A stretch of DNA of 64,000 bases from a virus (IMGVR_UViG_3300012000_000002:55040-119039); one strand, 5' to 3'; shown: positions 2,334 through 63,583, counted from the stretch's first letter. The notes: generated from the sequence alone by a model not told the origin. Numbers and translations: made by a program.

Positions 2334-2699
2334 ATGACAACAAACAACCAAAACAATTCTGAAGAACAACAAGCTGCAAAAAGCTTTGTAAGTTTTTTCT
2401 ATAACTTGATAGCTTTTGCTGGTGCTGGACTTATTGTTAAGCTAGCTTGGAATTTGGGCATAGCTTCTTTGTTTCCCGGCAAGATACCGGTAATCAATTA
2501 TATTCATGCTATGACATGGCTTACCATGCTTTATATCGCAGCAAGAACTATTGCGGCTGGATTTATGTCTGAGGTAGAAAAAACTGTTTCAAACCTTGTT
2601 GATCAATTCGAAGGTTTTATAAAAACAGCTCAAGAATATTTCGATGTTGCTAGCTCAAAAACTGCTGGCGATAACAACGATCATTCCAACTTGAATTAG
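2334..2699 (+). CDS. hypothetical membrane protein
   Basis: AAGGA SD before ATG 2334; two hydrophobic segments. Confidence 0.65.
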   Translation: MTTNNQNNSEEQQAAKSFVSFFYNLIAFAGAGLIVKLAWNLGIASLFPGKIPVINYIHAMTWLTMLYIAARTIAAGFMSEVEKTVSNLVDQFEGFIKTAQEYFDVASSKTAGDNNDHSNLN

Positions 2700-3004
2700 C
2701 CGATAAGATAACGTAGGCGTAGAATGTTTCCAATGCCATTACGTGTTTCTCTTAAATAACCAACAAGACTTAAAATCACACGGCGACGTTCTGTTGCTGC
2801 CGTGTTATGAAAATAGTTTTCACGAAGAAGTGTTTCACCTTCTTCTGCAAGTTCATCAGCACTAGCAAAAGTTTCATTCAAAAACTTTTCTACCTTTTTG
2901 TTGTATTCGGATAATCCACCTTCTCCACCAGAAAGAAGGATGGAATCAACATCTAGTGCTTCTTTGATTGCAGCTTTAAGTTGGTTGCGAAGTTTATTGT
3001 TCAT
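2696..3004 (-). CDS. hypothetical late protein with LKxxIKE leader
   Basis: MNNKLRNQLKAAIKEAL; CTACTTA motif at 3023-3029. Confidence 0.65.
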   Translation of the reverse strand: MNNKLRNQLKAAIKEALDVDSILLSGGEGGLSEYNKKVEKFLNETFASADELAEEGETLLRENYFHNTAATERRRVILSLVGYLRETRNGIGNILRLRYLIG

Positions 3005-3049
3005 AGCCAATACCTTTTGTGATAAGTAGTGGCATATATCGATTTTAAA

Positions 3050-3376
3050 CTATTTTCGCAACACTAGCGGATTGTCTTTGGGATGAATCTTCCAATATTG
3101 TTCTTCTAATGGAGGTGGTTCTCCCTTGCGAAAGAACATTAATTGGCGGCCATTTGCTTTGGTGCTGGGATACACACCTATGATAACAATGTCGCCGGTA
3201 TGAACAAGGCTATGACAAATAGCACAAAGGACAGCCAAGTTGTTCAAGTTATTTGAACAACGAGAATCTGCCCTTGGGATTATATGATGAATATGAAGAG
3301 CGTCGGGATTGTTGTAACTGCAAACTTCGCAAGAAACCTTTTTCAAGGTTTCACCTGTGCGCTTCTTACGTTGCAT
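3050..3376 (-). CDS. HNH endonuclease
   Basis: CEVC...LHIHHIIP...NNLNNLAVLCAICHSLVH signature. Confidence 0.85.
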   Translation of the reverse strand: MQRKKRTGETLKKVSCEVCSYNNPDALHIHHIIPRADSRCSNNLNNLAVLCAICHSLVHTGDIVIIGVYPSTKANGRQLMFFRKGEPPPLEEQYWKIHPKDNPLVLRK

Positions 3377-4220
3377 CTACATAATGCTCCAAGCAAGAAC
3401 GCAAAGTGTTTTCATGCAACGAAAGAACCTTAGAGATTGGGTCTTGATAACCTCCAGCAAGATTCCAAACAATCGGCTTTTGATGCTTGGCAGCGAACTG
3501 AAACACGATATCATCACGAAGCTTCATTTGTTCAGTGGTCAGATATCCACCAAGAGGATCGTTGATGTGAGGATCGGCACCGGCTTGATAAAGCAAGATA
3601 TCACAATCACGGAAGTTTGCATTGAGATATGCAGGAAGCTTTAGAAGCCAATGATCGAAGTTATCACCGTTATGTGCAAACTCACCAAAGGTGTAGTGTT
3701 CGATAAGCTTGTTAGCTCCCTCAAACCGATTAATGATATCGTGCGTACCATTTCCATAATGGGCATCAAAATCGATGATACCGATTCGTCCAACACCCTG
3801 CTTCCAAAGCTGGAATGCTGTAACCATCAAGCCGTTGAAGGTACAAAACCCTCCGCAGCTACTATAGCAACTGTGATGAAATCCGCTTGTGGGACTCATT
3901 GCAACAGTATCATTTACCAGCGCATATTCAGCGGCACGCAAAAAGCTACCAACCGTATAAGGCAAGCTATTCGCTACAGCCTCCAAGGTGTTACCAAACC
4001 CATTCATTCGACGCAACGACAAAATATCGTCAACAAACTTAGGATCGTGAGCAACAGCGATTTCGTGCTTACTCACTGGCAACCAATCGTTTACTACATC
4101 AATTCGCTTGCTCTTATTGAAAAGCTCTACAACCTTTTCGGGCTTTCCTGCGCTCGGAGAAAAACTGGTGTTGGTGCTAACAGACTGCTTTGGAGAATAA
4201 AAGACCTTGAGATTCGACAT
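3366..4220 (-). CDS. histone deacetylase (HDAC) family Zn-dependent deacetylase
   Basis: GFHH, GGFC..N, IDFDAHYGNGT, QAGADPHINDPLG and AGGY motifs intact; start MSNLKV after AAGGA. Confidence 0.93.
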   Translation of the reverse strand: MSNLKVFYSPKQSVSTNTSFSPSAGKPEKVVELFNKSKRIDVVNDWLPVSKHEIAVAHDPKFVDDILSLRRMNGFGNTLEAVANSLPYTVGSFLRAAEYALVNDTVAMSPTSGFHHSCYSSCGGFCTFNGLMVTAFQLWKQGVGRIGIIDFDAHYGNGTHDIINRFEGANKLIEHYTFGEFAHNGDNFDHWLLKLPAYLNANFRDCDILLYQAGADPHINDPLGGYLTTEQMKLRDDIVFQFAAKHQKPIVWNLAGGYQDPISKVLSLHENTLRSCLEHYVDAT

Positions 4221-4242
4221 ATGCTTTATTTCCTTTAGTATT

Positions 4243-4271
4243 ATAATAACACGTTTTAACAATATTCTAAA
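4243..4271 (-). promoter_or_regulatory. sigma70-like early promoter of the HDAC gene
   Basis: TTTAGA-17 nt-TATTAT on the minus strand. Confidence 0.65.
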
Positions 4272-4277
4272 AGAAAT

Positions 4278-4308
4278 AAAAAAGGCTTTTTGTTTCCAAA
4301 AAGCCTTT
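4278..4308 (-). terminator. intrinsic terminator after tail tube gene
   Basis: 11-bp inverted repeat aaaggcttttt/aaaaagccttt with flanking A run. Confidence 0.75.
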
Positions 4309-4343
4309 GTTTTAAGGGTGTTTAGCGATTTTGAGAAAGAATA

Positions 4344-4835
4344 TCAATATTGCATTACACAGTTGTCGAAACGTAGGGTAAGAGAAATTTCTGCCATATC
4401 TGCGGTGCTATCGTATGAAAGATCACCGAAACCTGCTGTTGTGCAGAAAGCTCCTTTGATATCCCAAAGTTGGATTACTGTACCAACTGGGTCAAGCATT
4501 TTAAGTTGAATGTCACGCTTGTAGAAGTCTGGGTAACCAGCACGACCTGATACAGATTCAAAGCAAAGGCGAACCCATTCCATTACTTGTTGAGCACCAG
4601 ATGGTGCTATTGGATCGTGAAGGGTTACAGCGAGGGTACCGAAGGTTGTTTTACCAGCAACATAGCGTGTGCTGTTAATCCAGTTGATTGTTACTTCTTC
4701 GGTTGTGATTTCTGGTCTTGCTGCTGTTTTCACCAAGAATGCGTCAATACCTTCGATAGCGAAGATAAACTGACGTTTCATCATTGGGGTAAACTTAGCT
4801 GGAAGCATTTCCGTTACTGATAATGTTTGTGCCAT
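4344..4835 (-). CDS. tail tube protein (T4 gp19-like)
   Basis: 163 aa; FLVKTAARPEI, LHDPIAPSGAQQVMEW, YKRDIQLKMLDPVG, WDIKGAF, ISLTLRFD; adjacent to sheath genes. Confidence 0.9.
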   Translation of the reverse strand: MAQTLSVTEMLPAKFTPMMKRQFIFAIEGIDAFLVKTAARPEITTEEVTINWINSTRYVAGKTTFGTLAVTLHDPIAPSGAQQVMEWVRLCFESVSGRAGYPDFYKRDIQLKMLDPVGTVIQLWDIKGAFCTTAGFGDLSYDSTADMAEISLTLRFDNCVMQY

Positions 4836-4886: not shown

Positions 4887-7800
4887 TCAACCACCAACAA
4901 AGTTATTGCGGTTTGTTACGAAGAAGTCGATTGTGAAGAACTCTAGAGATGTGGTTGGGATTAGATAAATCTTGCCACGAAGAGTTTTGTTATCTAGATC
5001 GGCTTGTGTTGTTGTTGTTGCATCGATAACAACACGATAACGTTCAACACCACCAGCGGATTGATAACGTGCCATGATTGGTTGAACAGCAGCGTTAAAT
5101 GCTTGTAGCGTTGTTGATTGAGCTGGTTCGAACAAGAAGCGTGTTGCAACTTGACGTACATCACGACGAATTGCAATAAGCAATCTACGAACGTTTACAC
5201 GGTTAAGCAAACTGTCTTTGTTGAGAAGAGTTTTTTGACCCCACACAACTGGACCAACACCTTGTTTTGAAAGCAAAAGGTTTATTCTTGCCACATAAAG
5301 GGTGTCAGAGTTGGCTTGATTTAGTGCAACAGCAAAGTCTGTTACGTTAGCAAGTGTGCCTCTTGTAAAGCCTGCTGGTGCGTTGAATGGTTGACCAACT
5401 GTATCGTTTTTAGCATATGCACCAAGTACAGCAACAGATGGTGGTACTTTTTCATAAACAGAACCGTCGTTTGTTACAATGTTTACGTCTGGGAAATAAG
5501 TTGCTGCAAAGCTGCTGTTTACTCCACGAGTAACGAATTGTTGCGCTGTTTGTGAAACGTTAACTGCTTCATAAGAACCAGTAAGTGATGTACCATTAGA
5601 ATCATATTGTTCTGGATCCATGATGTAGAAACAGTCGAAGCGATCATTTTCTACAGCGTTGATTGCTGTATCTGTGACATAACGCACACGGATACCGGGC
5701 ATTGTAAGAAGTTGGATGTTAACATCGTTAACATCTGAGATAATTCCAATGCTCTTCAAGTAGCTTTGTACGGTTGGACCGTTTGTTAGACCACGGCTTG
5801 TTTGTGTGATTTCTTGAGCAACGGCTGCGTTTTTAAGATAACGTGTATCTGGATTAAAGATACGAGTACCATCGAAACCACGTTCTAGATAAAAGCTGAA
5901 CTTAGCCAAGCGTTGTACTGCGGCATTTTCAACAAGGTCGTTCACTGAAAGAGCTCTTGTTTTTGTTGCTTCGTCAGCGGCAATGTTTCCTGCACGAACA
6001 TAACTCCAGCTTAGAAGTGCTGCTGTGCTTGTGTTTGGTACGTCGCCGCTACCCGTTACAATCTTAACTTTTTCTAGAGAGAAAAGGTTGTTGTTAAACA
6101 AGTCTGAGTCAATGATACCGTTTGCGGTTGTGGTAGCTGCGCCATTGTTATCAAACACTGCTGGTTGCACATTTGTTGAGCCTTCAAGATTTGGATAATA
6201 CTTGCTGAATCCAAGTAAGCTTGGATTAAAGATAGAACTTCCATTTGGATCGGTAAGGCTTGTTACGTTTTGGAATTGTACACCCCAATAAAGACCTGTG
6301 TCAACACCAGAAGAAGCAGATAGCTTCTTAATGTTTAGACGCATTGGAATAGGTGGTTGCGATGCGTTGTAAAGTGGTACGCCCCCGCCAGCAAAGTATG
6401 GGAAAGCTGGGGCTAGTAAATCGCCTTGCTTGATGTTATAAAGTGAGCTTGACCCTTGTGTTACAAGGTGTTGCGGACCACGGAAACCAAAAGGCATCGC
6501 TGAAGGATCAAGTTCACCAGCGTCTACTGCATCTGCAATTTCAACACGAACATAACGAGAATTGTTTGAATAAGATCCATCTGTTGTTACTTTTTGTGAA
6601 GCTGTGTCTGTGTCGAAGTTAAAGAACGTGTTTATGTTGCCGATTTTCTTGGCAATATAGTTTGGTGAAGTTGGATCAAGTGAGCAGTTTGTAAATGTTT
6701 CCAAAGCTGCATCGTTATCGGTTGAAGTCATCGAACGAACAAGAACTGTAAACACACCATATGGTTGTGTTGCTGTTCCGGGTTGAATGTTAACGATAGA
6801 TATCTTTACCTCACCATTGCTTGCTTCACCATCTGAGAGACTGTGGAAACGGAAAAGATTTTGTGGAACTCCACCGAATCCTTGAGAAATAACCCAAGGT
6901 GAGAAAGCGTGGCCATAACGATCTTGGAAGCCTTCGAAGTTTGGTGTGATTGCTGAACCAACGTTTGATGTGTGGGTAGCGTTCGAACCAGATGAAGGAA
7001 CAAGGAACGCAATGTTTTGTTTGGTACCGTAAGCAGAGCCAGAAGAAGCCACAATAACACCAGAACCTGTTGGAACTGCAAGGGCAGAGAATACATCAAA
7101 GCTACCATAAAGCAAGTGACCAGCTTCTTCTGTTTTAAGCGGATCAGTATTCAAAACACTTGGGAAATAGTTCACGGCTTGTGGATCGAAACTTGCAGTA
7201 ATAACGTTCGGATAACGTGCATCTGTTCCTTTGTGACCATTAAGAATCATCACAAAGCTTTGTTGGCCAGAGGCAAGTTCAACTGACCCAGTAAATGCAC
7301 CACTGAATGACATTTCAGTAGCTACAAAGCTTGAAGCTGGAGCTGGTGAATTTTGTGCTGCTGATGATAGACGAAGCACAACTCCAGACGGAGCAAACAG
7401 CACACCACGAACGATTGGTACTGAGCCTGTTGAAGTTTGCAAGCCTGCATCAGAAAACACAGTAGAGCCAACTGATTCACTCATGAAGCAACCAAGCATA
7501 TACACAGAGCCGGTCACACCACCTGCGTTTGCAAACACGTTGTTTCCAAGAGCACCAGTGCTTCCACTTGGCTGTTGAGAACCAACAACGAAACCTGCAT
7601 CTGTTACAGTTCCGTTAGTATTTCGTGCTAAACCTTGACCAGCTCCAAGCACTCTTAGTTGCATGAGAGGTACACCAGTGTTACTAAACCATTCTCTCGC
7701 TGAAAGATAACCTAGTGGAGTATTTGAGTTAACACCACCAAACACTGACACATATTGTGTTAGTGTTGTTGCCATGATAGGAACAAATGCTGGTCCTTTG

Positions 7801-7904
7801 GCTGTTGTAGATATTACCAACGCAGGAACTCCTGATGGTGAGCGAGTTGTTGGTTGACTTATATCAAACTCTCTTGCTAGTACGCCGGGGCTTAATAGTG
7901 CCAT
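4887..7904 (-). CDS. tail sheath protein 1 (gp18-like)
   Basis: SPGVLAREFD N-terminus, GPAFVP, C-terminal PAGFTRG and WGQKTL...LNRVNVRRLL. Confidence 0.92.
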   Translation of the reverse strand: MALLSPGVLAREFDISQPTTRSPSGVPALVISTTAKGPAFVPIMATTLTQYVSVFGGVNSNTPLGYLSAREWFSNTGVPLMQLRVLGAGQGLARNTNGTVTDAGFVVGSQQPSGSTGALGNNVFANAGGVTGSVYMLGCFMSESVGSTVFSDAGLQTSTGSVPIVRGVLFAPSGVVLRLSSAAQNSPAPASSFVATEMSFSGAFTGSVELASGQQSFVMILNGHKGTDARYPNVITASFDPQAVNYFPSVLNTDPLKTEEAGHLLYGSFDVFSALAVPTGSGVIVASSGSAYGTKQNIAFLVPSSGSNATHTSNVGSAITPNFEGFQDRYGHAFSPWVISQGFGGVPQNLFRFHSLSDGEASNGEVKISIVNIQPGTATQPYGVFTVLVRSMTSTDNDAALETFTNCSLDPTSPNYIAKKIGNINTFFNFDTDTASQKVTTDGSYSNNSRYVRVEIADAVDAGELDPSAMPFGFRGPQHLVTQGSSSLYNIKQGDLLAPAFPYFAGGGVPLYNASQPPIPMRLNIKKLSASSGVDTGLYWGVQFQNVTSLTDPNGSSIFNPSLLGFSKYYPNLEGSTNVQPAVFDNNGAATTTANGIIDSDLFNNNLFSLEKVKIVTGSGDVPNTSTAALLSWSYVRAGNIAADEATKTRALSVNDLVENAAVQRLAKFSFYLERGFDGTRIFNPDTRYLKNAAVAQEITQTSRGLTNGPTVQSYLKSIGIISDVNDVNIQLLTMPGIRVRYVTDTAINAVENDRFDCFYIMDPEQYDSNGTSLTGSYEAVNVSQTAQQFVTRGVNSSFAATYFPDVNIVTNDGSVYEKVPPSVAVLGAYAKNDTVGQPFNAPAGFTRGTLANVTDFAVALNQANSDTLYVARINLLLSKQGVGPVVWGQKTLLNKDSLLNRVNVRRLLIAIRRDVRQVATRFLFEPAQSTTLQAFNAAVQPIMARYQSAGGVERYRVVIDATTTTQADLDNKTLRGKIYLIPTTSLEFFTIDFFVTNRNNFVGG

Positions 7905-8018: not shown

Positions 8019-11000
8019 TCAGATAGAAACTCCGCTTGGAAGAACAACGAAATCCATTACGATGTATTCGATTGCTCTTGTTGGAAGCACTCTAATTTGA
8101 GCATTCATACGGTTGCTGTTAACGTCTTCAGCAGTATTGTTACGATCATCACAGATAATCGCAAACTGTTCAATACCTTGTTGGGCTTGAACTGTTGCAA
8201 GTACCAATGCTGCTTCGTTAACAAAACGTGTGCGAAGTGCTGGTGTGTTTTGTTCGAAGAGCAAACGGTTACCGATTGCAACAATTTGACGCTTGATTTC
8301 TAGTAACATTCTTTTAACGTTAATAGATTCCAAAGCACTTTCTGCTTGTTGCAATGTGTTTTGTGAGAAGAACACATAGTTGGCACCGGGGAACTTCACG
8401 ATTGGGTTAATGTTGGCATCGTAAAGTGTGTTGCGATCATTTTGGTTTATTCTTATTGAAGTAAGAAGTACGAAACCAAGAGAACCACGATCAAATCCTG
8501 CTGGAGCAAACCAAGGGAACTTAACACGGTCGTTATAGCTCAATGCTGAAAGAGCAGCAATAGAAGCTGGGAGTTGTACACGGCGAGTGTTAACAGTGTC
8601 TTCGATAACGATGTTGGGGAAGTATGCTGCACCACCGTTGTTATCCAATGCACGGTTTATAAACGCATTTGATGTTTTGTTGATGGAGATTGATCGATTT
8701 GATTCACCATCAAAGATACGAACATCGTCTTTGTCGTATGGTTGAAGGTCTAGAAGATAAAAACTCAAACCGTAATCTGTGTTTTTCTCTAGTGCGTAGT
8801 TTGTGATAAGTGGATCACGTTGACCGGGCGTTGCAAGAATGTTGTTGTTTGCAAGGCTTGGGTTGGTTGCAATATCAAGTGCTGTGCGATAAGCAACAAC
8901 GTTTTGGTTAGAAGCACCAACGCCAGTATAGTTGGTTGCTGATGGAGCACCGGGAGATACATAGCTTGCATTAGCAAGACCATATACACCACCAGCACCA
9001 GCTTCTGTAGATGTTGATTGATCTGTAAAGCGAGCAGCTTGTTTGTCAAAGATGTTTACACCATCCCAGCCACCTTGCATAAAGGTTGTGAATTTAGCGT
9101 AGTTAGAGAAGTTGTTAAACTGAACTGCGCTGCTGCTGTTAACCAACGAAGCAAAAGTAATACGGTTGCTGTAGTTTGTTGCAACGTATGTTGTTGGATC
9201 GATTGTTGCGTTACGAAGATATGCAGCAGACTTCATAAGTGTTAGAATATCTGTTGAAGCTACCGTTGTCATTGAAGTTTCGTTTAGCGCAACATTTGCA
9301 AGGGTGAACTTGTTGTTGTTCAAAAGATCGCTTGCTGAACCAGTTGTAAGCACACCTAGTTTTTCAATGCCAGCAAATTTAGAAAAGTTTGCAACAATTG
9401 GGTTAATCGCTGCATTAACGTTAACGTTTAGAACGTCATTGTTGTTTCGTTCTAGTTTAACGCCCCAATACAATCTTCCGTCTACAACTGTTTGAGCACC
9501 GGGAGCACCAAACACTGTACCAGAAGCAGTTAGTGGGTTGCGTGTAACTGTAAATCGATATGGAACAGGTGGAACAATTGATCCAGATAGCAAAGCACCA
9601 TTTGGAACTGTGCTTGAAGATACACCACTTATTCTTGCAAGTGTTGGCAAACCACCTTGATCGCTCAAAGCTACGTTTGTCAAAAGCATTTGGTGACCAC
9701 GGAAACCGAATGGAAGAGCTAGTTCTGGCACTTCGTCGTTTTCAAGTTGTGAGCTTGGAACCACACGAATAAATCTGCTGCGATTACCGTATTTTCCTTC
9801 AACTACAACACCACGGTCTTCTGCTTCAACTTGATCAAAATCAAACTTGGTGCGTTTATCACCAATAACTCTTGCAATATATTGGCTGCTTTTTGGATCA
9901 AGTGATAGGTTGTTAAATTGTTCTAGAATTTGTGGTTGTTCGTCGGTGTCATTGAACGCTCTAACAGACAAAGTAAATGAACCATATTTTGATGATGGAT
10001 TTGTTGATGCCAACAAGTTTGAAATGCTGATTTTATACTTGCTGTTTGCATATTCACCGTCATCACGGCTTTCTACATAAAATAGATCATACTCGATTCC
10101 ACCAAAAGGTTGTGAAACAAAGTATGGAGTTTTTGGTGCTGTATAACGTGTGTTAAAGTAACCAAATACTTCACTGTATTCAAGACCAAGTGAGTTTGTG
10201 TTGGCAGATCCAGAAAGAACCGCAACGGTTGGAACAGTGTTGCTAGCGGAAAGAGTTGCAACTTGTGCATCTACAGCATAATCAAGATAAAGAAGATGTT
10301 TTTTTGTTGCAAAGTTTTCTGGGTTTGTGTTTAAGATTTTTCCAACGTATTGATCTGAGTCTGGATCGAATGATGCTGAGAAGATTTGAAGACCTGCAAC
10401 ACCATCATCGGAAGAAAATGAAGAACCAGCAGAGCAAGAAAGAACTAGTTTAAACATTCCTTGCATTGGTCCAGTTGTACCAACTTGTGCTGCTTCGTAT
10501 GTGCCGCTTCCTCCAAATGCAGCAGTTGGATCATAAACACCACCAGAATCTACTGCACCACTTAAAACAAGAAAGCGTGAATCCGGTGCAGTGAATAGAA
10601 CAGCACGAACAAGATTTACACTATCATTGTCTGGTGTAAAGCCGCTAACGTTATAGCTGTTGTTGTTGGTAAACATTGGATATCCAAACACTTCGTTGTT
10701 TTGTACAAAGTGCTTACCAACCAAGAATTGTACACGGCCTTGCAACGCACCAGAAACGAATACTGTTCCGTTACCGACAACTTGCATACCGGCGTTTGTA
10801 ACAGTGCCGCTAACTTGTGTTTGTGTTATATCAATTGAACTACTATTGGCACCACAACCAAGAACACGAATGTAGTTAACTGAAGCTAGCTCAGTGCCTT
10901 TTGCTTCTAGAAATTTTTGTACACCATATGTACCAACATATTTCGAGTTTACTGGTCCAAACTTGTTTGAAAAATCTGTGTAACTTCCAAGGGTTATTGG

Positions 11001-11129
11001 CACAAAGGCTGGGCCTTTTTCTGCACCACCAATAATGGTTGCTGGCGTTCCACCAACAGGGATTGTACGTTCGGTTAAGTCGAACTCTCTATCGAAATAA
11101 TTGGGGGCTTTTAATACTGTTTCTGGCAT
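8019..11129 (-). CDS. tail sheath protein 2 (gp18-like)
   Basis: APNYFDREFD, GPAFVP, PWFAPAGFDRG, FSQNTL...LESINVKRML; start MPETVL after GAGG. Confidence 0.92.
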   Translation of the reverse strand: MPETVLKAPNYFDREFDLTERTIPVGGTPATIIGGAEKGPAFVPITLGSYTDFSNKFGPVNSKYVGTYGVQKFLEAKGTELASVNYIRVLGCGANSSSIDITQTQVSGTVTNAGMQVVGNGTVFVSGALQGRVQFLVGKHFVQNNEVFGYPMFTNNNSYNVSGFTPDNDSVNLVRAVLFTAPDSRFLVLSGAVDSGGVYDPTAAFGGSGTYEAAQVGTTGPMQGMFKLVLSCSAGSSFSSDDGVAGLQIFSASFDPDSDQYVGKILNTNPENFATKKHLLYLDYAVDAQVATLSASNTVPTVAVLSGSANTNSLGLEYSEVFGYFNTRYTAPKTPYFVSQPFGGIEYDLFYVESRDDGEYANSKYKISISNLLASTNPSSKYGSFTLSVRAFNDTDEQPQILEQFNNLSLDPKSSQYIARVIGDKRTKFDFDQVEAEDRGVVVEGKYGNRSRFIRVVPSSQLENDEVPELALPFGFRGHQMLLTNVALSDQGGLPTLARISGVSSSTVPNGALLSGSIVPPVPYRFTVTRNPLTASGTVFGAPGAQTVVDGRLYWGVKLERNNNDVLNVNVNAAINPIVANFSKFAGIEKLGVLTTGSASDLLNNNKFTLANVALNETSMTTVASTDILTLMKSAAYLRNATIDPTTYVATNYSNRITFASLVNSSSAVQFNNFSNYAKFTTFMQGGWDGVNIFDKQAARFTDQSTSTEAGAGGVYGLANASYVSPGAPSATNYTGVGASNQNVVAYRTALDIATNPSLANNNILATPGQRDPLITNYALEKNTDYGLSFYLLDLQPYDKDDVRIFDGESNRSISINKTSNAFINRALDNNGGAAYFPNIVIEDTVNTRRVQLPASIAALSALSYNDRVKFPWFAPAGFDRGSLGFVLLTSIRINQNDRNTLYDANINPIVKFPGANYVFFSQNTLQQAESALESINVKRMLLEIKRQIVAIGNRLLFEQNTPALRTRFVNEAALVLATVQAQQGIEQFAIICDDRNNTAEDVNSNRMNAQIRVLPTRAIEYIVMDFVVLPSGVSI

Positions 11130-14467: not shown

Positions 14468-14998
14468 ATGAACGTAAGATTAATTAAGCCCGTAATAAAA
14501 GCGATACTTTTAGAAGCTTTAGCAAAAGCAAAAACTCTTTATGTGTTTGACTTCGATCATACCATCGCAAAAACGTATGAAGAAAACATACGTTTGCCAA
14601 ATGGTAGAATCGATTTACGTGCTTTTTCTAACTTAAGCGACGAAACAAAACCAAACGGTGAAATATTCGATATGTTTGCCGATAAAGTTGAAAGCGATCC
14701 TGATACAACATTTATTCTCACCGCTAGACCTATAGGAGTTAAAAACCCAATGATCGAATGGTTGAAAAGCCAAGGAGTTGATATCGATCCCGCAAAGATC
14801 GTATGTCTTGGAGATGGTGCCGCAGGTAAAAAACGAGATTGGATCAAAGAAAAAATTTTGAAAACCAAAGCAAAAAAAGTTATGTTTTGGGATGATAGAG
14901 AAAGAAATACAAAAGCAGTTGACAGCTTAAACGATAAAGAAAAGCATCCAGAATTGGAAGGCGTTAAAGTCAAAACAACAACGGTGGTAAAGTCATGA
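14468..14998 (+). CDS. HAD-superfamily phosphatase 1
   Basis: YVFDFDHT motif I, ILTAR motif II, GKK and FWDD motifs III/IV. Confidence 0.8.
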   Translation: MNVRLIKPVIKAILLEALAKAKTLYVFDFDHTIAKTYEENIRLPNGRIDLRAFSNLSDETKPNGEIFDMFADKVESDPDTTFILTARPIGVKNPMIEWLKSQGVDIDPAKIVCLGDGAAGKKRDWIKEKILKTKAKKVMFWDDRERNTKAVDSLNDKEKHPELEGVKVKTTTVVKS

Positions 14999-15669
14999 AC
15001 AAAAACTTAAAACAAATCATTAAAGCGGTTATCTTAGAAGTTCATGAAGAAGAGTTTTTAAAACTTGGAGTGCCTTCTGAAAAAACTGGATTGAAAACTC
15101 TTCGTGTGTTTGATTTCGATGACACTCTTGCTAAAACCAATTCAAAAGTTGGTGTAACTGAATTCGATAAAGAAACTGGCAGGCAAATCAAATCAGAATA
15201 TATGATTACTCCCGCCGAATATGCAACGTTTAAAGTAGATGTAGCAGAAAAGAATCCTGACATTGAATACGCATACGATTATCGTGAATTCGCAGAAGTT
15301 AAAGATCCAAAAATAATTGATTGGACTTTTGAAGTTTTAAACAAGATTGTTCGAAAGTTAAGAGCTAGCGAAAACATTCCCGCCGTTATTCTAACAGCAA
15401 GAGGTCATGGCGCAAACAAAAACATTCGTGAGTTCTTAAGAGAAATGGATATCAACATTCCTGTTAAAACCCTTAATGGCTCTGCTCCAGAACTAAAAAG
15501 CGAATGGATCAAACAAACAATGCTTGATCGCAACATTCCTCATATTGAGTTCTTTGACGATAGCAGACTTAATGTTGCTGCTGTTAAACAACTAAACGAT
15601 GATTTAGAGCTGTTGGCAAAGTTTAAACAAGACCTAAAAGTTCGTTCTCGTCTTGTGCAAGCAGAATGA
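14995..15669 (+). CDS. HAD-superfamily phosphatase 2
   Basis: RVFDFDDT, ILTARG, LK and FFDDS motifs; ATGA overlap with upstream paralogue. Confidence 0.8.
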   Translation: MNKNLKQIIKAVILEVHEEEFLKLGVPSEKTGLKTLRVFDFDDTLAKTNSKVGVTEFDKETGRQIKSEYMITPAEYATFKVDVAEKNPDIEYAYDYREFAEVKDPKIIDWTFEVLNKIVRKLRASENIPAVILTARGHGANKNIREFLREMDINIPVKTLNGSAPELKSEWIKQTMLDRNIPHIEFFDDSRLNVAAVKQLNDDLELLAKFKQDLKVRSRLVQAE

Positions 15670-15732: not shown

Positions 15733-16050
15733 TCAGCGACGGGATGAGCGACCTTTGCGGTAACCGGCACGATAAGCTGCTGCTACTGCTTCTTTTAAAG
15801 ATTCGGAATAACCAGAAAGTTCAATGCTTGATGGGCCTTCGCCACGTTCTTCTCTACTTTTGTAGGTATATTCTTGATCACGTTGTCTGCGGCGTTGATC
15901 TTCGTAGCTTTCTTTTTCGCCTGAATCCCATGAGTCGCCGTGACGATTTCCACCTTCACCGCCTCTTGAATAGCTTCCAAATTGTTCATCCATAGCTTCT
16001 TCAGAAGCTTCACGAATTAATGCTTTTAGTTGCTTAACTGTAATTCTCAT
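15733..16050 (-). CDS. small protein with MRITVKQLKALIREA leader
   Basis: GGAG SD; N- and C-termini shared with neighbour. Confidence 0.8.
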   Translation of the reverse strand: MRITVKQLKALIREASEEAMDEQFGSYSRGGEGGNRHGDSWDSGEKESYEDQRRRQRDQEYTYKSREERGEGPSSIELSGYSESLKEAVAAAYRAGYRKGRSSRR

Positions 16051-16064: not shown

Positions 16065-16280
16065 TCAGCGACGGGTGGCACGGCCACGACGATAACCTGC
16101 ACGGAAAGCTTTGGCAACTGCTTCTTGAAGGGCTTCTTCCATGCCAGCACCTTCGTCTTTGCCATGATCCATAGCTTCGTCCATATCTTTACCTTCGTCT
16201 TCTTGCTTCTTCATTTCGTCCATAGCTTCTTCTGTAGCTTCACGGATCAATGCTTTTAGTTGTCTAACTGTAACTCTCAT
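16065..16280 (-). CDS. small acidic protein with MRVTVRQLKALIREA leader
   Basis: AGGAG SD; paralogue of 15733-16050. Confidence 0.8.
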   Translation of the reverse strand: MRVTVRQLKALIREATEEAMDEMKKQEDEGKDMDEAMDHGKDEGAGMEEALQEAVAKAFRAGYRRGRATRR

Positions 16281-16322: not shown

Positions 16323-16550
16323 TCACGCTTTTTCTTTTTGTTTTTTTAAACCCATATTTTTCATGATCTTGGTGGCCGTACCATATATTGCTGCTTCGTT
16401 GTCACCATAACGGGGTTTAAGTTCTTTTTTGATAATCTTTTCTACTTCTGCTGGGAAGTGTATTTTGCCCTTACGTTTCTTTTTACGTTTTTCTAAAAGA
16501 ACTTCTTGAATAATCAAACTTATAAGTTCTTCTAAGATTACTTCCTTCAT
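16323..16550 (-). CDS. small basic late protein
   Basis: GGAGG SD; CTATTTA motif at 16574-16580. Confidence 0.7.
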   Translation of the reverse strand: MKEVILEELISLIIQEVLLEKRKKKRKGKIHFPAEVEKIIKKELKPRYGDNEAAIYGTATKIMKNMGLKKQKEKA

Positions 16551-19056: not shown

Positions 19057-21009
19057 TCAGATGATGGACATATCGAGGCAGGTCACGGTGGCGTAGAAGT
19101 CTGCACGAACCATCTTCTTCCCGTAGCGGGTCATGATGCCCTTACGTGGGGTGAAGTCCTCTTGTCCGTAGATTACGGGGGTGAGGATAAGTGGAACGTA
19201 TGGAGCGTAGATATAGCCGCTTTCAAGGAAGCTTGAACCCTTAAGACCGATAAGGATCTTGTTTACTGGGAAGTATGGGTCAACGAATACTGAGTAGCGA
19301 CCGTTTACTGTACCGACTGCTTCTGCACCAATGCTCATGTTGTCACGAACTTGGCCGTCTGAGTCGATTTTGTAGTTGGCACGGTAAGCAACTGTTGCTT
19401 CAAGGATTGTGCCCACTTCTGGTGAGCAGACGATGAAGTTACCTGAGCCACGGAGGGTCTTCTTGTGGATGACGTTGGCTGCGTCTGTGATGGTTTCGAT
19501 AAGTGTTTCGTACCATTCACGGACTGTGCCGGTGAATTGTGGACCGGGGTAAACGGTGTTGGTACGAGCAACTTCGGTGCCTGTGTATTTGTTGACGAAG
19601 CGACCGGGGGCACGGCTCCAGTAGTAGTTAGCTGCTTGAGCTTGTGTGAGGAGGTCGTTGAGAATTTCACGGTCGATATCCAATGTGATCATTTCAGAAA
19701 GGATATTTGTGAGATTTGCTTCTACGTCGATTGAGTAGAATGCTGTAAGGTCTTGAGCCAGTTCTGGTGACCAGCGAGCACGTAGCTTGCGGGTTGTGGC
19801 TGTTACAGCTACTGAATCGATTTTGATGTCAACGTCTGGGATGCGTGGTGATGCATCAACAGCGAAGTTTGATTCAAAGCTTGGAATTGTCAATGTTGAA
19901 CCATCAGCATTGACTGAGAGGGAGTCAGCAATTGGAATAGAAGCTGTGATTTGTGTTGATGCGTTGCCAAGATAAACGGAGCTAACGCTTTGTGCGTTTG
20001 CAAGACCGAGAGCAACAAGGATGTGTGAACCGCCGAATGGATCTGGTGTGAATGTTGAGCTTGTGCCAGCATCGGTCCAGTTACCACGCTTGGTGAAGCG
20101 ACGGAAGTTAAGAACGCCTTCGCCTGCTTGGTAGGTTAGTGGAGGTGCTGTGAAGCTTGAGCCTGACAAACCAAGACCAACAACTGCGAGTTGTTCAAGT
20201 GATGTAAGGTCTGCACCATTGATTGCGTTTGTTACTTGTGAAGCTGAGAACACCAAGAAGGTATAGTCGAGCACATTGCTTTCAACGTCTGCTGCAAGAA
20301 GTGGATCATAATCAGTGAAGCGTGCGTTGTAACCAACGTTTGCTGATGCTGAAGCAACTGATGATTGTGATAGCCATGTTGTGCCTTGATACCATGTACC
20401 GAGAGCAACTACGCCTGTTGCAAGTTTGGATTCTGAGTGAACCTTTGAGTAACCAGAACCGATAAGGTTGTATTGACCACCGGCAGCGAGTGAACCGCTG
20501 GTACGGATCAATGAACCGGATGGGTTGGTGTATACTGATTGACCACGGGCATATGTTGCTGCGCCGGGATCGGTACCAGTTGCAAATTGGTTAGCTGCTG
20601 TACCTGCATCACCACCGACGTATGAGCCGTAGGTGTAATCTAAGTAGAAGAGTAGACCTGATGGAAGGCTCATTGGTTGAACGCTGACGATTTCGTTAGC
20701 AACGAGGCCAGCGAACACACGACGAACGATTGGGAATGCTACGTTTGTAAACCCAGCAACTTGTCCAGAGGATGCAAGTGATGCACCACCTGTTGAAAGT
20801 GAAAGGCTTTCATTGAGCATTGATGAGCCGCCCTTAAGAACTTCTACTGCTTGGTTTTCAAGGAGGCGAGCCATCTTTTGCTTGCCAGTATCTGAAAGAC
20901 CTTCTAGAAGACCTGTGCGTGACCACTTGCCTACAATGCGGTCATCGCCATTTGCTGCGGTACGTTGAATACCTTCAGCTAGTTGTGAGAGTGTTAGTGT
21001 ACGTGACAT
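19057..21009 (-). CDS. major capsid protein (T4 gp23-like)
   Basis: AFPIVRRVF..LVANEIVSVQPMSLPSGLLFYLD, RKLRARWSPELAQDL, GYIYAPYVPL, FTPRKGIMTRY. Confidence 0.96.
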   Translation of the reverse strand: MSRTLTLSQLAEGIQRTAANGDDRIVGKWSRTGLLEGLSDTGKQKMARLLENQAVEVLKGGSSMLNESLSLSTGGASLASSGQVAGFTNVAFPIVRRVFAGLVANEIVSVQPMSLPSGLLFYLDYTYGSYVGGDAGTAANQFATGTDPGAATYARGQSVYTNPSGSLIRTSGSLAAGGQYNLIGSGYSKVHSESKLATGVVALGTWYQGTTWLSQSSVASASANVGYNARFTDYDPLLAADVESNVLDYTFLVFSASQVTNAINGADLTSLEQLAVVGLGLSGSSFTAPPLTYQAGEGVLNFRRFTKRGNWTDAGTSSTFTPDPFGGSHILVALGLANAQSVSSVYLGNASTQITASIPIADSLSVNADGSTLTIPSFESNFAVDASPRIPDVDIKIDSVAVTATTRKLRARWSPELAQDLTAFYSIDVEANLTNILSEMITLDIDREILNDLLTQAQAANYYWSRAPGRFVNKYTGTEVARTNTVYPGPQFTGTVREWYETLIETITDAANVIHKKTLRGSGNFIVCSPEVGTILEATVAYRANYKIDSDGQVRDNMSIGAEAVGTVNGRYSVFVDPYFPVNKILIGLKGSSFLESGYIYAPYVPLILTPVIYGQEDFTPRKGIMTRYGKKMVRADFYATVTCLDMSII

Positions 21010-24051: not shown

Positions 24052-24546
24052 TTATTCGAAACTACCTTTTTTAGAGCCGGGAAGATGTCCACCACCACCA
24101 AATCCACCACCAGATTGTGCTGGACGGTTTGATATTGGCTTGTTAAACGCTAAACGTGCCCATGCACTTGTAGGATTTTGAACTTGTTGCTGTTGATATT
24201 GTTGTTGTAGATTTGCAACAGCTTGTGGATCTCTTGGAGGAAGAGGATTACGTCCTTGTGGAGCAGCTTCTCCTAGCATTGCAAGGTTAACGCCTGTGGC
24301 TAGCGGCATACCATGTTGTTGTTGAGGAAGACTTGTTACAGCAGTATCGGCAAATATTTGTTCCATGATTGGATTGCCACCAGCAGCCATTTTAATTCTT
24401 GGGTCTTGAAGCAAAGCTTGCTGTTGAACAACTTGTGAACGTTCAGCTAATAAGCCACTAACCATATGATCTAATGCACCTTCAGCAACAAGCTCTTTAA
24501 GGCACTCTTTGATAATCGCTTTAAACTCTGTTTTTTGTATTTTCAT
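24052..24546 (-). CDS. hypothetical head-module protein with leader motif
   Basis: MKIQKTEFKAIIKECLKE N-terminus, Q-rich. Confidence 0.75.
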   Translation of the reverse strand: MKIQKTEFKAIIKECLKELVAEGALDHMVSGLLAERSQVVQQQALLQDPRIKMAAGGNPIMEQIFADTAVTSLPQQQHGMPLATGVNLAMLGEAAPQGRNPLPPRDPQAVANLQQQYQQQQVQNPTSAWARLAFNKPISNRPAQSGGGFGGGGHLPGSKKGSFE

Positions 24547-43050: not shown

Positions 43051-43061
43051 TATCATTCTCC

Positions 43062-43322
43062 TCAATCTGGTGTGACAACAATATCTACTGTTGGAGTTTC
43101 TTCTGAATCTTCATCTTCGTTAAGCTCTGCGCTTTCTAATATCTCGCTGGCTTCTGCACCTTCGGGTTTGTAATATCTTGTTTTTAACCAATCAGACATT
43201 TCTTCGTCATCCATTGGTTCGATAGCTGGCTCTCCAATGTCTTCTGGGTCGGGCATTAATTCGTCATAAGATTCTTGCTTTTCTTCTTGCTCGAACAAAA
43301 TCTTGTATAGCTTTGTGTTCAT
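43062..43322 (-). CDS. small acidic late protein
   Basis: MNTKLYKILFEQ leader; CTATATA motif at 43347-43353. Confidence 0.7.
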   Translation of the reverse strand: MNTKLYKILFEQEEKQESYDELMPDPEDIGEPAIEPMDDEEMSDWLKTRYYKPEGAEASEILESAELNEDEDSEETPTVDIVVTPD

Positions 43323-52723: not shown

Positions 52724-53935
52724 ATGCGTAAACTTTTCGACATTCTTTTCACCAACGAAAATACTGGTGACTTTTCTGGTGCTGGTACTTTTCAAGGTGG
52801 GCCTTATGGATTTGGTAACCGTTATCAGTTAGCTAACTCCCAAGTATGGCCGGGACTACAAGACCCAGATGAAGGATTACCTCCCAATCCTTCTTTAAGA
52901 CCTGCAATTGACGCACAAAGAGATCCAAAGGACACCGAATATGAATCCCTTGAAAGTTCTGAAATTTACGATAGTCGCCCTCATTTATTGCCCGGAGAGG
53001 ATATGGTTAGAGACGAAGTGCTCCTTAAAAGCAAAGATATCGAACCTTCGTACTTTTATACGCCGGACTTTATGAACGAAGACCCAGCACGAGTTCTTTA
53101 TCGAGACTTACCCGGCTTTCCTGCCATGAACACTTTGTCTGAACCAATCGATCACGTTCCTGACGATCAAGACCCAGACAGAACAGAACCAGAAGAAGAA
53201 CGCTATAATGTGCCTCGTTTGCTTCCTTCACCAAGAGAAGGCAAGCGTGGCGTTCCGTTTGGTCATGGACCGGTTAATGTTCCCGGTGAAGGAACTCTTA
53301 GCATGAAACCGGGAGACATTGGTGTGCAAGCCAGTATGTACGATCCTATGGAACCAGAGGGTAACCAACTAAACCTAACCAAAAAACGTAATCAAACGCT
53401 TAATCGTTGGAAAGAAACAACTGAAGTTGATAAAGGACACACCAATCGTGACGCTGTGTTTAATCATCTTGTAAAGCCTATTGATTACATCAAAAAAGAG
53501 TTCGGCCAAAACGATTATGTAAAAGACTTGGACAATCCTGACGATGTGCCACTTCATGCTGGTGGACAAGGAGTAATCGCACATCCTGTTAAGCATGTTC
53601 CCGGCAACATCAATATCTATAAGAAAGGTAATCCCGGTTATTCTCTGGGTGAGGCTAAGGAAACTAAAATGGCAAAGAAAGAACCAAAACGTGAACTTGA
53701 AGATTATGTTCCAAAAGACCTTGATAAAAAGGAAACAAAGGAAACATATGGAAATGGTATGGGTCAAATCATGAAAGCTTATCAGTTTCCCCGTGAAGAT
53801 AGAGAAATAAAAAAACACAAACCTCTTGAACCGGAACAAACTTATATTCCATATCAATATGATCGCAGCAACATTGACGTTATCATTCTCGACAAGCTTT
53901 TCGAGAAACTATCCAAACTAACAAAAAAGTCATGA
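52724..53935 (+). CDS. Pro/Asp-rich hypothetical late protein
   Basis: ATACTTA 5 nt before ATG; MRKLFDILFTNE leader. Confidence 0.75.
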   Translation: MRKLFDILFTNENTGDFSGAGTFQGGPYGFGNRYQLANSQVWPGLQDPDEGLPPNPSLRPAIDAQRDPKDTEYESLESSEIYDSRPHLLPGEDMVRDEVLLKSKDIEPSYFYTPDFMNEDPARVLYRDLPGFPAMNTLSEPIDHVPDDQDPDRTEPEEERYNVPRLLPSPREGKRGVPFGHGPVNVPGEGTLSMKPGDIGVQASMYDPMEPEGNQLNLTKKRNQTLNRWKETTEVDKGHTNRDAVFNHLVKPIDYIKKEFGQNDYVKDLDNPDDVPLHAGGQGVIAHPVKHVPGNINIYKKGNPGYSLGEAKETKMAKKEPKRELEDYVPKDLDKKETKETYGNGMGQIMKAYQFPREDREIKKHKPLEPEQTYIPYQYDRSNIDVIILDKLFEKLSKLTKKS

Positions 53936-54747
53936 AGTTATCGGATATCATCGAAGCGAAAATATTGCAAAGATTAGCTGAATCCAGTGAAGAAGATGTA
54001 GAAAAGCTTCACAAAGCTAACGAAGTCTTTGAAAGTATTATAAGCTTTGTTGAAAACCTAAATCAAGACCCTAAAAACTTCGATAAAAAATTTATGAAAG
54101 ACAACGAAAATCGGTTGTATGGAATTAAGTTGCATTCCATAATATCGATGCCAGAAACTGAAAACATGCGTGTGTTATTCTTTGATTACGATATCGAAGG
54201 AGTGAAAAAAACCATTAAAGCAAAAGCTGGAAGAAAAATTGAAGGCGATCAACTTAAAAGCGTTTATGTTTCGTTGTTCTTTGATGCTCCATCTTCTGTT
54301 AAAGAAAACGTAAAAACATACAATCGTTGGTTTGCTAAAAACCTAATCAACATTTTGAACGATTCAAGATATCGTTCTTCCTTTGTACATGAATTTACGC
54401 ACACACTTGATTATCGCAGAATAAATCCAGAATATCTTGTTGCAAGAGCAAAACAAAAAATATCAGAAAAAGAAGCGAAGAAAACAAAAGATCGTGACAA
54501 GTACATCAACGATCCATTAGAGCTTAATGCTTATTACCAACAAGCGATGAGTGATATATACAACAAGTTACTTGCTACTGAAACCGTAGAAGAATGGAAC
54601 AAACTTATAGGAAACACTCCACAAGAATTTGTAGAAGTGCTATTAGCAAATTTGCGTCCACAAGTTCAAAAACGGTTGAATCCAGAAAACGTTAAACGTC
54701 TTATGAAGCGTGCATCAACAACTTGGGAATATTTAAGATTAACATGA
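53932..54747 (+). CDS. zincin-like (HExxH) protein with leader motif
   Basis: FVHEFTHTLD and YINDPLELNAY; MKLSDIIE start. Confidence 0.65.
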   Translation: MKLSDIIEAKILQRLAESSEEDVEKLHKANEVFESIISFVENLNQDPKNFDKKFMKDNENRLYGIKLHSIISMPETENMRVLFFDYDIEGVKKTIKAKAGRKIEGDQLKSVYVSLFFDAPSSVKENVKTYNRWFAKNLINILNDSRYRSSFVHEFTHTLDYRRINPEYLVARAKQKISEKEAKKTKDRDKYINDPLELNAYYQQAMSDIYNKLLATETVEEWNKLIGNTPQEFVEVLLANLRPQVQKRLNPENVKRLMKRASTTWEYLRLT

Positions 54748-62026: not shown

Positions 62027-62043
62027 ACACTTTAACTATTCCC

Positions 62044-62268: not shown

Positions 62269-62272
62269 CAAA

Positions 62273-62482
62273 ATGGAAAAACAAGCAAACAGCATGTGGA
62301 TTGCAAGAAAAATGGTATATGTTGGACCATATCCAGCGTTTCAATACGAAGAAGTAACAAAGGAAAAACTAGAACAAATGGCTATGGAAGCTCAGATTCT
62401 TTTAGAAGAAGAAGCACATCGTCATACCGAAAATTGTGATTGGTGGCAAGATTGGCACGCTTGTAACTGTGGTGGGTTTTAA
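62273..62482 (+). CDS. hypothetical protein
   Basis: AAGGA SD; C-terminal C..W..WH.C.CG. Confidence 0.65.
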   Translation: MEKQANSMWIARKMVYVGPYPAFQYEEVTKEKLEQMAMEAQILLEEEAHRHTENCDWWQDWHACNCGGF

Positions 62483-62487
62483 TCAAA

Positions 62488-62520
62488 AAGAAAAAGGGAG
62501 CTTTCGCTCCCTTTTTCCGT
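62488..62520. terminator. bidirectional terminator between convergent genes
   Basis: aaaaagggagc-tttc-gctcccttttt. Confidence 0.85.
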
Positions 62521-62539
62521 TTTAGTTTATTGATTGTTT

Positions 62540-63013
62540 TTATCTTGTGCTTTTTATAGCTTCACGAACAATTGTTTTAAGACTTTCTCCAAGTCTACGT
62601 CTCATACCGCTACGTTTTGGAAGATCTTCTAAATCTTCATATCCTAAGCTGCCAAGTTCTTTCTTAGCATCTTCTGCTCGCTTGTCTTCATCTTCGAATT
62701 TTTTCGATAGTTTTTCGAAATATCTTTCTTCTTCTTCGGCTTCACGTTTGCGTTGTTCCATTTCTCTTGGATATATTTCTTCAAGGTGAGCAATCAACGC
62801 ACGAAGTTGTTCTTCTGATACGTTTTCTGAGCGTATCCAGCGTGGGCGAATGTTGTAAAGCTCTTTGTACATATCGCTGTACAAACTTATTAGGTCATCT
62901 TTATCGCTAATTGTATCTACATATTTAGCTTTTCTATCTAGTTCGCTAGGATCGATTTCGTCTATCGCTTCACGAACAAGACGTTTAAGTTGTTTAACGG
63001 TTAGTTTAGGCAC
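62540..63013 (-). CDS. protein with KLTVKQLKRLVREA leader
   Basis: GTG start, AAGGAG SD, GTATTTA motif at 63042-63048. Confidence 0.8.
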   Translation of the reverse strand: MPKLTVKQLKRLVREAIDEIDPSELDRKAKYVDTISDKDDLISLYSDMYKELYNIRPRWIRSENVSEEQLRALIAHLEEIYPREMEQRKREAEEEERYFEKLSKKFEDEDKRAEDAKKELGSLGYEDLEDLPKRSGMRRRLGESLKTIVREAIKSTR

Positions 63014-63050
63014 TGAAATACTCCTTTAAATCTGTTAGCGATAAATACAG

Positions 63051-63079
63051 TTTAAACTTTGTTTTTTATCTGCTATGCT
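63051..63079 (+). promoter_or_regulatory. sigma70-like early promoter
   Basis: TTTAAA-17 nt-TATGCT. Confidence 0.55.
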
Positions 63080-63098
63080 AAAAAAAGAAAGGTATACA

Positions 63099-63338
63099 AT
63101 GAACACGTACAGGTTGATAAAGTTTCTTGATATGGATCGAGCAGTATTAAAGCGAAATGGCAAAACATATGTTGCATCATTCGCTGATGTACATGGATCT
63201 GGACCAGAGGTGCTTGTATTTCCTGCAACAACGAACGGAACGATCACAGATTGGAGCGAAGTGGACGGAGGCAGAGGATACACTAGCTTGCAAGATTTCC
63301 TATCGCAAGCCCTGCTAAACACTAACCGTTATCAATGA
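63099..63338 (+). CDS. hypothetical protein
   Basis: AAGG SD before MNTYRL. Confidence 0.65.
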   Translation: MNTYRLIKFLDMDRAVLKRNGKTYVASFADVHGSGPEVLVFPATTNGTITDWSEVDGGRGYTSLQDFLSQALLNTNRYQ

Positions 63339-63583
63339 GATTTTTTCAAGCCCCTCTTAACCGCTTCAAAAACGGCTGAACGAATCATGCCCTCGGGAGA
63401 ATATGATTCTAATTCTTTTTCAAGTTCTGCAACCGGAGTATCGATGACATCCATCAGATCTGAACCGCTTAGGCTTTCTCCACTGTACATGTTTCGACGT
63501 TCTAAAACCTTGAGAATCAATCGATAATGCTTTTCTGGCAAATCTCTAATCTTTTCCATTACATCTAAAAATGTTGTTTCCAT
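63332..63583 (-). CDS. small late protein
   Basis: AAGGAG SD; ATATTTA motif at 63619-63625. Confidence 0.7.
   Translation of the reverse strand: METTFLDVMEKIRDLPEKHYRLILKVLERRNMYSGESLSGSDLMDVIDTPVAELEKELESYSPEGMIRSAVFEAVKRGLKKSH

Follow-up and report, generated by a model that had tools for sequence, protein, structure and literature searches.

A clade-wide N-terminal leader in uncultured marine jumbo phages is a candidate capsid-targeting propeptide

In bacteriophage T4, a short capsid-targeting sequence (CTS; MKTYQEFIAE) is carried by IPI, IPII, IPIII, and Alt and is removed by the prohead protease gp21 (Mullaney and Black 1996, via PMC9026906 and PMC5694885), which cuts after L/I-x-E (PMC9026906). 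Propeptides of phiKZ, 201phi2-1, and SPN3US are cleaved after S/A-x-E or A-x-E by diverged gp21 homologs (PMC5694885, PMC9026906). Here we analyze an N-terminal leader, LKxLIREA in its local form, that is shared by proteins encoded in a 64,000-nucleotide stretch of viral DNA (IMGVR_UViG_3300012000_000002:55040-119039; "the window," to which coordinates refer unless stated otherwise). It makes up the right-hand half of viral contig G000, which is 119,039 bp long. An earlier note on this DNA had proposed that the leader is a modular, protease-cleaved tag that loads diverse cargo into the head for injection. Our comparisons suggest that it is probably a capsid-targeting propeptide like the T4 CTS.

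Four minus-strand open reading frames (ORFs) begin with M-R-[IV]-T-V-[KR]-Q-L-K-x-L-[IV]-R-E-A. The near-identical N-termini named in the earlier note, at 16050, 16280, 39302, and 63013, were all present on that strand. In the descriptions below, a bar marks the predicted cleavage position.

15733-16050, minus strand: tight-leader ORF, 105 aa; leader MRITVKQLKALIRE|A, acidic middle, basic tail ..YRAGYRKGRSSRR; E 8.9e-16, leader matrix score 33.0
16065-16280, minus strand: tight-leader ORF, 71 aa; leader MRVTVRQLKALIRE|A; isoelectric point (pI) of the mature part 4.8
39111-39302, minus strand: tight-leader ORF, 63 aa; leader MRITVKQLKQLIRE|A; hidden Markov model (HMM) E 2.9e-15
62540-63013, minus strand: tight-leader ORF, 157 aa, GTG start codon; leader MPKLTVKQLKRLVRE|A, one residue longer than the others (MPKLTV...); HMM E 3.2e-14

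A 22-residue HMM was built from these four leaders and scanned against 1,980 stop-to-stop frames, covering all six frames of the contig. It matched just the four ORFs (E 9e-16 to 3e-14), and the next match had an E value of 0.25. The leader coding sequences vary at synonymous sites; between the 15733 and 39111 ORFs, five codons are changed with the residue kept. Therefore, selection acts on the peptide rather than on a DNA motif, and a promoter, recombination box, or mRNA element was rejected as an explanation for the same reason. We also constructed a position matrix from 124 non-identical metagenomic leaders and scored every predicted N-terminus, with 30,057 internal windows of the same proteome as the null (99.9th percentile 0.6; 99.99th percentile 5.8).

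The earlier note described the ORFs as otherwise unrelated. This is not so for 15733-16050 and 16065-16280, which are tandem paralogs with a common C-terminal A-x-R-A-G-Y-R-x-G-R..RR, but it is apt for the cargo of the leader in general. The predicted mature parts of the four ORFs have 49 to 142 residues, pI values of 4.6 to 5.5, and Lys/Arg-rich tails. No other proteins of the proteome are as dense in [LIVM]-x-Glu as these four and the products of two other ORFs, 2696-3004 and 16323-16550 (6 to 7 per 100 residues versus 1.8), and 16065-16280 is at the top (7.0 per 100 aa). PHROGs and Pfam contained no family for the four ORFs or for ten proteins from leader arrays in relatives, and the ESM Atlas returned only viral hypothetical clusters. 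Small acidic or basic-tailed proteins that gp21 cuts into peptides (gp67, gp68, and gp22) make up part of the T4 prohead core; the tail is acidic in gp67 and basic in gp68, and both have N-terminal L/I-x-E sites. The four window ORFs resemble these proteins in their size (63 to 157 aa), acidic bodies, Lys/Arg-rich tails, and 6 to 7 [LIVM]xE sites per 100 aa. Unlike them, they are scattered outside the head operon. Because of the acidic body, basic tail, and dense cleavage-type sites, they are most likely small core or internal proteins comparable to T4 gp67, gp68, and the IPs, and not enzymes.

Two of these ORFs have further features. The C-terminus of 62540-63013 (..SLKTIVREAIKSTR) is itself leader-like, with a matrix score of 7.0 that is the second highest among the internal windows of the null, and it may be a C-terminal propeptide like that of T4 Alt. 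The C-terminus ..ESLKTIVREAIKSTR (62540-62590) is conserved in the relatives L082 and P0056. Homologs of the 63-aa protein encoded at 39111-39302 (P0014, P0004, and P0034) have an EF-hand-like loop, D-K-N-H-D-G-E-L-S-G-E-D-F, which is degenerate in the window copy.

On the contig are genes for a gp23-like capsid protein, a T4-like portal, two tail sheaths, GroEL, and a gp21-family prohead protease. The closest cultured capsid proteins, at 34 to 46% identity, are those of Microcystis phage Mel-JY01, Flavobacterium phage immuto, and Rhodothermus phage RM378, and relatives of the protease were found on IMG/VR contigs of up to 293 kb. From this gene content and the size of those contigs, the phage is an uncultured marine jumbo member of the far-T4 group. 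CheckV put the completeness of the contig at 35%. A megablast search with 10 kb of the window matched no phage record.

To place the leader in relatives, a 34-column profile was searched against 1.84 billion cluster representatives, and at least 412 matched (E<=1e-3). Position, cargo, and copy number were counted in the best 150 of these. The match began at residue 1 in 141 of them. The clade consensus is M-K-[IL]-T-[KV]-[RK]-Q-L-[KR]-x-[IL]-I-[RK]-E-[EA], in which only Met1 is better conserved than Glu14 (2.8 bits) and Ile12 is at P3. The leader end, I12-[RK]13-E14, therefore fits the L/I-x-Glu rule, and across this wide family conservation drops after Glu14/15. Cargo ranged from 29 to 631 aa. 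No Pfam domain was present in 140 of the 150, and the domains in the rest were EF-hand, NUDIX, HAD-like, and DUF3008 or LRV. The sources were marine metagenomes (Tara mesopelagic, GOS, IMG, and ENA). The idea of a modular tag is thus borne out far beyond the window, with 412 clusters and diverse cargo.

The leader is also repeated within genomes. Its exact canonical form occurred in 101 IMG/VR stretches, with up to 11 copies per 10 kb, and near-complete relatives gave 12 to 25 HMM hits each. A complete 293,409-bp genome with terminal repeats (G005) has the leader on 33 of 392 called genes, mostly in three arrays of back-to-back small genes. Another relative (G003) has about 19 leader genes in a row. 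RM378, cyanophage Syn19, immuto, and Mel-JY01, which are far relatives whose head genes differ, and a 484-kb uncultured phage had either no match or one weak match. The leader belongs to no PHROG or Pfam family, and a full-text literature search found its strings in none of the papers covered.

The earlier note had named enzymes as cargo. This appears not to hold for the four tight-leader ORFs, which are nearer to T4 core and internal proteins, but it probably does for two HAD phosphatases in the window.

14468-14998, plus strand: HAD-type phosphatase, 176 aa; 21-residue diverged leader (..IKPVIKAILLE|A) before a DxD fold; matrix score 8.1
14995-15669, plus strand: second HAD-type protein, 224 aa; diverged leader (..LKQIIKAVILE|V) followed by a linker; matrix score 4.9

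Two HAD homologs, P0125 and P0126, carry the canonical leader, and 14995-15669 aligns in register to both the leader and the HAD part of P0125. A HAD homolog in G003 is leaderless, and its residues 2 to 141 align to residues 22 to 151 of 14468-14998. As far as these alignments go, the tag has been gained and lost on the same HAD fold. Outside the window, at contig positions 50867-51709 on the minus strand (L191:5868-6710), is an Fe/Mn superoxide dismutase (PF02777, 3e-15). The enzyme domain is preceded by an N-terminal extension of about 43 residues that contains two leader-like units, ..LQKVIQE|AV and ..KKILQE|AV. The two HAD phosphatases and the superoxide dismutase are most likely true enzyme cargo with diverged leaders.

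We then considered the head genes in the window.

24589-25200, minus strand: gp21-family prohead protease, 203 aa (phrog_207, 1.5e-48); N-terminus ..FLLKE|F
24052-24546, minus strand: conserved head gene, 164 aa, directly downstream of the protease gene (the T4 gene 22 position); N-terminus MKIQKTEFKAIIKE|CLKE|LVAE|G
19057-21009, minus strand: gp23-like major capsid protein, 650 aa (PF07068, 3e-76); predicted site ..SSMLNE|SLSLSTGG
21072-23315, minus strand: scaffold-like protein, 747 aa; Pro/Ala-rich middle and 22 [LIVM]xE sites in residues 381 to 747
25197-26069, minus strand: conserved head-module protein, 290 aa, between the portal and protease genes; ..GLLYE|FF and 13 [LIVM]xE sites

The note's assumption that the genome has a gp21-family protease proved correct (24589-25200), and the N-terminus of this protein is comparable to LIE-9 of T4 gp21. 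A homolog with 52 to 58% identity was present in all nine large leader-bearing contigs tested. The MLNE|S sequence of the capsid protein was also as described. When 60 clade capsid-protein N-termini were aligned, the sequence ..Q[VL]L[RK]E|[AS].. emerged, with a conserved Glu about 27 residues ahead of FPIVRRVF; the T4 gp23 counterpart is ..FLTE|AEIGG, about 32 residues before MVRR. The alignment places MLNE|S at the T4 gp23 cut position. Judging from this alignment, the predicted capsid-protein site has the same form as the leader end, hydrophobic-[RK]-Glu. The many cleavage-type sites that the note saw in the scaffold were found as well, 22 hydrophobic-x-E sites in its C-terminal half. The 290-aa protein has homologs in immuto and Mel-JY01. 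The Pro/Ala low-complexity stretch of the scaffold-like protein is about 300 residues long, with a local G+C content of 46.5% versus about 39% elsewhere.

The product of 24052-24546 is of particular relevance to the origin of the leader. Homologs are found in more than 50 loci. The family N-terminus is MK[IL]T[RK]xxLKx[IL][IV]KEC[LI]VE[IV]LxEG, with K9, E14, E18, and E22 invariant. AlphaFold predicted a helix at residues 5 to 21, with a pLDDT of about 93. The leader and 24052-24546 profiles were aligned by hhalign with 94.8% probability (E 5e-8) over 24 columns, placing M1 on M1 and E14 on E14, and the tight window leaders also keep Glu at 14, 18, and 22. Therefore, the leader appears to be a copy of the N-terminal segment of this core protein. 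The protein itself is a T4 core-protein analog by position, helicity, and cleavage-type sites only.

At the sequence level, the leader agrees with the T4 CTS in its position, its L/I-x-E end, the gp21-family protease, and its unrelated cargo. Both are short peptides at the extreme N-terminus that end in L/I-x-Glu with hydrophobic residues at P7, P4, and P3, and both are found on unrelated carriers in genomes with a gp21-family protease. In both, the tag also resembles the product of the gene just after the protease gene: gp22 of T4 starts MLKEQLIAE|A and the IPII/IPIII tag is MKTYQEFIAE|A, and here the corresponding gene is 24052-24546. However, the leader has no evident homology to the T4 tag. 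It has 14 to 15 residues rather than 10 and is basic, whereas the T4 tag is neutral or acidic. There are 12 to 33 tagged genes per genome in long tandem arrays, whereas T4 has about four, and fused multi-leader proteins occur. The T4 tag is well known, and an Asp at its P1 position stops processing but leaves targeting intact. The phiKZ-type giant phages are similar in that many of their head and ejection proteins are processed after Glu, that they have paralogs with identical N-termini, and that their propeptides can have multiple sites. However, those propeptides are mostly 100 to 160 residues long rather than one short universal tag, P3 is small and not hydrophobic, and the phages are of another lineage.

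A mechanism can be proposed from these comparisons. The amphipathic leader helix, copied from the N-terminus of a head-core protein that is encoded beside the prohead protease, would bring the tagged protein into the core of the assembling prohead. The gp21-family protease would then cut after the near-invariant Glu14 (with Ile or Leu at P3), and the mature protein would be freed inside the head. The earlier proposal of a tag that loads diverse cargo for injection therefore stands as far as the modular leader, its cleavage-type end, and the protease are concerned, and from these we infer targeting, cleavage, packaging, and injection. More tentatively, and with somewhat less than an even chance of being right, one 14-residue tag might, throughout the clade, load 20 to 30 different fast-turnover proteins per virion for co-injection with the DNA, with the tag coding sequence acting as a recombination joint for arrays and fusions and the head protease re-cutting the fusions. 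If so, the co-injected set would, just as tentatively, include HAD phosphatases, superoxide dismutase, and NUDIX hydrolases.

The earlier note also listed nine looser versions of the leader. Four of these (3004, 14468, 14995, and 24546) were supported by the position matrix, but five (16550, 43050, 43322, 52724, and 53932) were not (p 0.06 or more). The scores were 11.3 for 3004, 8.1 for 14468, 4.9 for 14995, and 11.9 for 24546; those of 3004, 14468, and 24546 are over the 99.99th percentile of the null, and that of 14995 is well over the 99.9th. Nine of 150 genes stand out by the matrix: the four tight ORFs, 2696-3004, the two HAD genes, 24052-24546, and the superoxide dismutase gene outside the window. 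In control phages analyzed with the same gene caller, the same matrix found none in RM378 and one in Syn19. A zincin (53932) and the 41902 and 52724 proteins had been suggested as leader-bearing cargo, but they have no significant leader match. The looser cases that have not been described above are as follows.

2696-3004, minus strand: diverged-leader protein, 102 aa; MNNKLRNQLKAAIKE|A; matrix score 11.3; 5.9 sites per 100 aa
16323-16550, minus strand: 75-aa protein; MKEVILEELISLIIQE|V; 6.7 sites per 100 aa; leader matrix p 0.08
41902-43050, minus strand: 382-aa protein; MKYLWEYILNE|A; hydrophobic-x-E near the N-terminus only, not significant with either leader matrix
43062-43322, minus strand: 86-aa acidic protein with a second leader type; MNTKLYKILFE|Q; not significant for LKxLIREA
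52724-54747, plus strand: two genes, 52724-53935 (403 aa) and 53932-54747 (271 aa, HEFTH); N-terminal hydrophobic-x-E, no significant leader match

The second leader type is weaker. It has [LIVM][FY]E in the first 20 residues. The 14 genes with this type (3.5-fold, p 2e-4) lie predominantly in the left half of the contig. More generally, a hydrophobic-hydrophobic-x-Glu whose Glu lies no later than residue 22 is present in 27% of genes versus 11% expected (p 1e-7); the corresponding values in the controls were 15% versus 17% in RM378 and 14% versus 9% in Syn19. One second-type protein (MKTKLFDYIFE|N; 204 aa) is encoded outside the window, at contig positions 5578-6192 on the plus strand (L190:579-1193). 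Its residues 16 to 37 copy residues 65 to 86 of the capsid protein across the predicted cut (15 of 22 identical, E 6e-7).

We also examined gene direction and upstream motifs. Several leader ORFs had been described as sitting alone against the local gene direction, which is true only of 39111-39302, a lone minus-strand gene amid plus-strand genes, and of the pair at 41902-43322. A promoter-like motif, ATA[CGT]TTA/CTATTTA/TATATAT, precedes the capsid, sheath, and portal genes and several leader genes, including CTATTATAT at -28 of 16065-16280 and CTATATAT at -23 of 39111-39302. However, the earlier claim that most leader ORFs carry this late motif is inseparable from background: the fixed pattern is upstream of 3 of 9 leader genes versus 24 of 141 others (p 0.2). 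In G005 (L212-L226) and in the window, two classes of upstream motif are enriched, ATA[CGT]TTA/CTATTTA/TATTTAT at the capsid, sheath, and portal genes and TGGTATAAT, of the extended -10 type, at other genes. In G005, no sigma-70-type TGGTATAAT promoter is directly upstream of the leader arrays, and one array is headed by the structural-gene motif.

Several observations weigh against a CTS-like propeptide. The leader is basic, with 4 to 6 Lys/Arg, unlike the T4 tag, and the pattern that it shares with that tag is hydrophobic P7/P4/P3-x-Glu only, ten residues being too few for a homology test. The core-protein profile (A3) showed no homology to T4 gp22 or gp68 by hhalign (0.1% and 0.2%). The nearest cultured phages are without the leader, and within the clade its co-occurrence with the protease is inseparable from shared ancestry because every member has the protease. 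The structural-gene motif is not significantly enriched at leader genes, as described above. Some leader copies do not have the Glu (e.g., ..VIRKLL). Finally, not every copy is N-terminal, because a second or third in-frame copy is present in 75 of the best 150 representatives, a share that is inflated by the adding of scores over copies. The residues before internal copies (E-[SG]-[KV], then M or V) are those of an in-frame ribosome-binding site followed by an ATG or GTG start. Because these match the ribosome-binding sites and starts of the arrays, the internal copies look like fused or nested tandem genes, and we set aside the idea that they are natural polyproteins with protease-cleaved joints. 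Such fused proteins would presumably be harmless if each leader is cut. In G003, one 477-aa ORF (L080:2455-3888, minus strand) is an example of a fused array gene, in which a leaderless HAD domain continues in frame into an internal MKITKRHLKRIIKK.. leader and a further module.

Other explanations for the leader must be considered. It could be a permanent N-terminal helix with a scaffold-binding or oligomerizing role, retained in a fast-diverging paralog family that arose from the head-core protein. Homology to residues 1 to 24 of the core protein, the stable helix predicted there, and the true paralogy of the two tandem ORFs are all consistent with this, and duplication followed by divergence would be expected to yield arrays of small orphan genes. 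However, the cargo folds are unrelated (HAD, Fe/Mn superoxide dismutase, NUDIX, and EF-hand), HAD homologs exist with and without the leader, and conservation falls after Glu14/15. A near-invariant Glu with Ile at P3 is also unexplained unless it is a processing site. We therefore regard a permanent helix as unlikely. The chance that the pattern is an artifact of start codons or composition, or mere coincidence, is close to nil. Short N-termini of amphipathic character are frequent, and the five weakest of the looser cases did not reach significance, but the six-frame HMM E values of 1e-14 or better, the 412 clusters among 1.84 billion representatives, and control phages without such a signal refute this both for the four tight ORFs and for the four looser cases with support.

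Two further possibilities move the leader away from the prohead, and we give each of them little weight. One is that it is a tag for another machine, either the chaperonin of the clade itself or a modifying enzyme of the type that acts on ribosomally synthesized and posttranslationally modified peptides (RiPPs). The genome does encode GroEL. However, immuto has GroEL without such a leader, which weakens the chaperonin-client idea. A search for radical-SAM (PF04055) found it only in G007, and it was absent from G000, G003 (96% complete, 25 leaders), and G005 (100% complete). Two essentially complete genomes with 20 to 25 leaders thus have no PF04055, and for this reason we rejected a radical-SAM/SPASM partner for a RiPP-like leader. 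A tag of either type would also leave the likeness to the head-core protein and to the capsid-protein cleavage site unexplained. The other possibility, equally improbable in our estimation, is a Lys/Arg-rich helix that binds nucleic acid or is directed at the host, on host-takeover proteins that are not part of the virion. The 4 to 6 basic residues in 14, on one helical face, would suit such a role, and the mostly small orphan cargo recalls early host-takeover arrays. However, the G005 arrays have no TGGTATAAT promoter directly upstream and one is headed by the structural-gene motif, several window members have that motif too, and the window proteins have acidic mature parts.

If the leader is a CTS-like propeptide, then the set of proteins delivered through the capsid would be about 10-fold larger in these ocean phages than in T4, and a single peptide, recognizable from sequence alone, would mark every one of them. 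The principle is not new. What is notable, from the genome comparisons, is the scale on which the leader is used (about 8% of genes in the complete genome) and the apparent derivation of the tag from the N-terminus of a core protein. The injected proteome of uncultured phages, which is likely to be rich in anti-defense and host-takeover factors, could then be listed from metagenomes. Copying the N-terminus of a core protein would be a general route by which T4-like phages make loading tags, and the leader would add to the T4 tag an unrelated second means of directing foreign proteins into phage heads.

Two other features of the window were noted. At 4887-7904 and 8019-11129, both on the minus strand, are neighboring paralogous tail-sheath genes of about 1,000 aa each (phrog_23, PF17482). 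At 35896-39108 on the plus strand, a single 1,070-aa ORF combines an Mre11-like phosphoesterase (PF00149) with a Rad50/SbcC-like ATPase (SMC_N, AAA_23, and an SbcC Walker B motif), and it would be a one-protein fusion of the counterparts to T4 gp47 and gp46.

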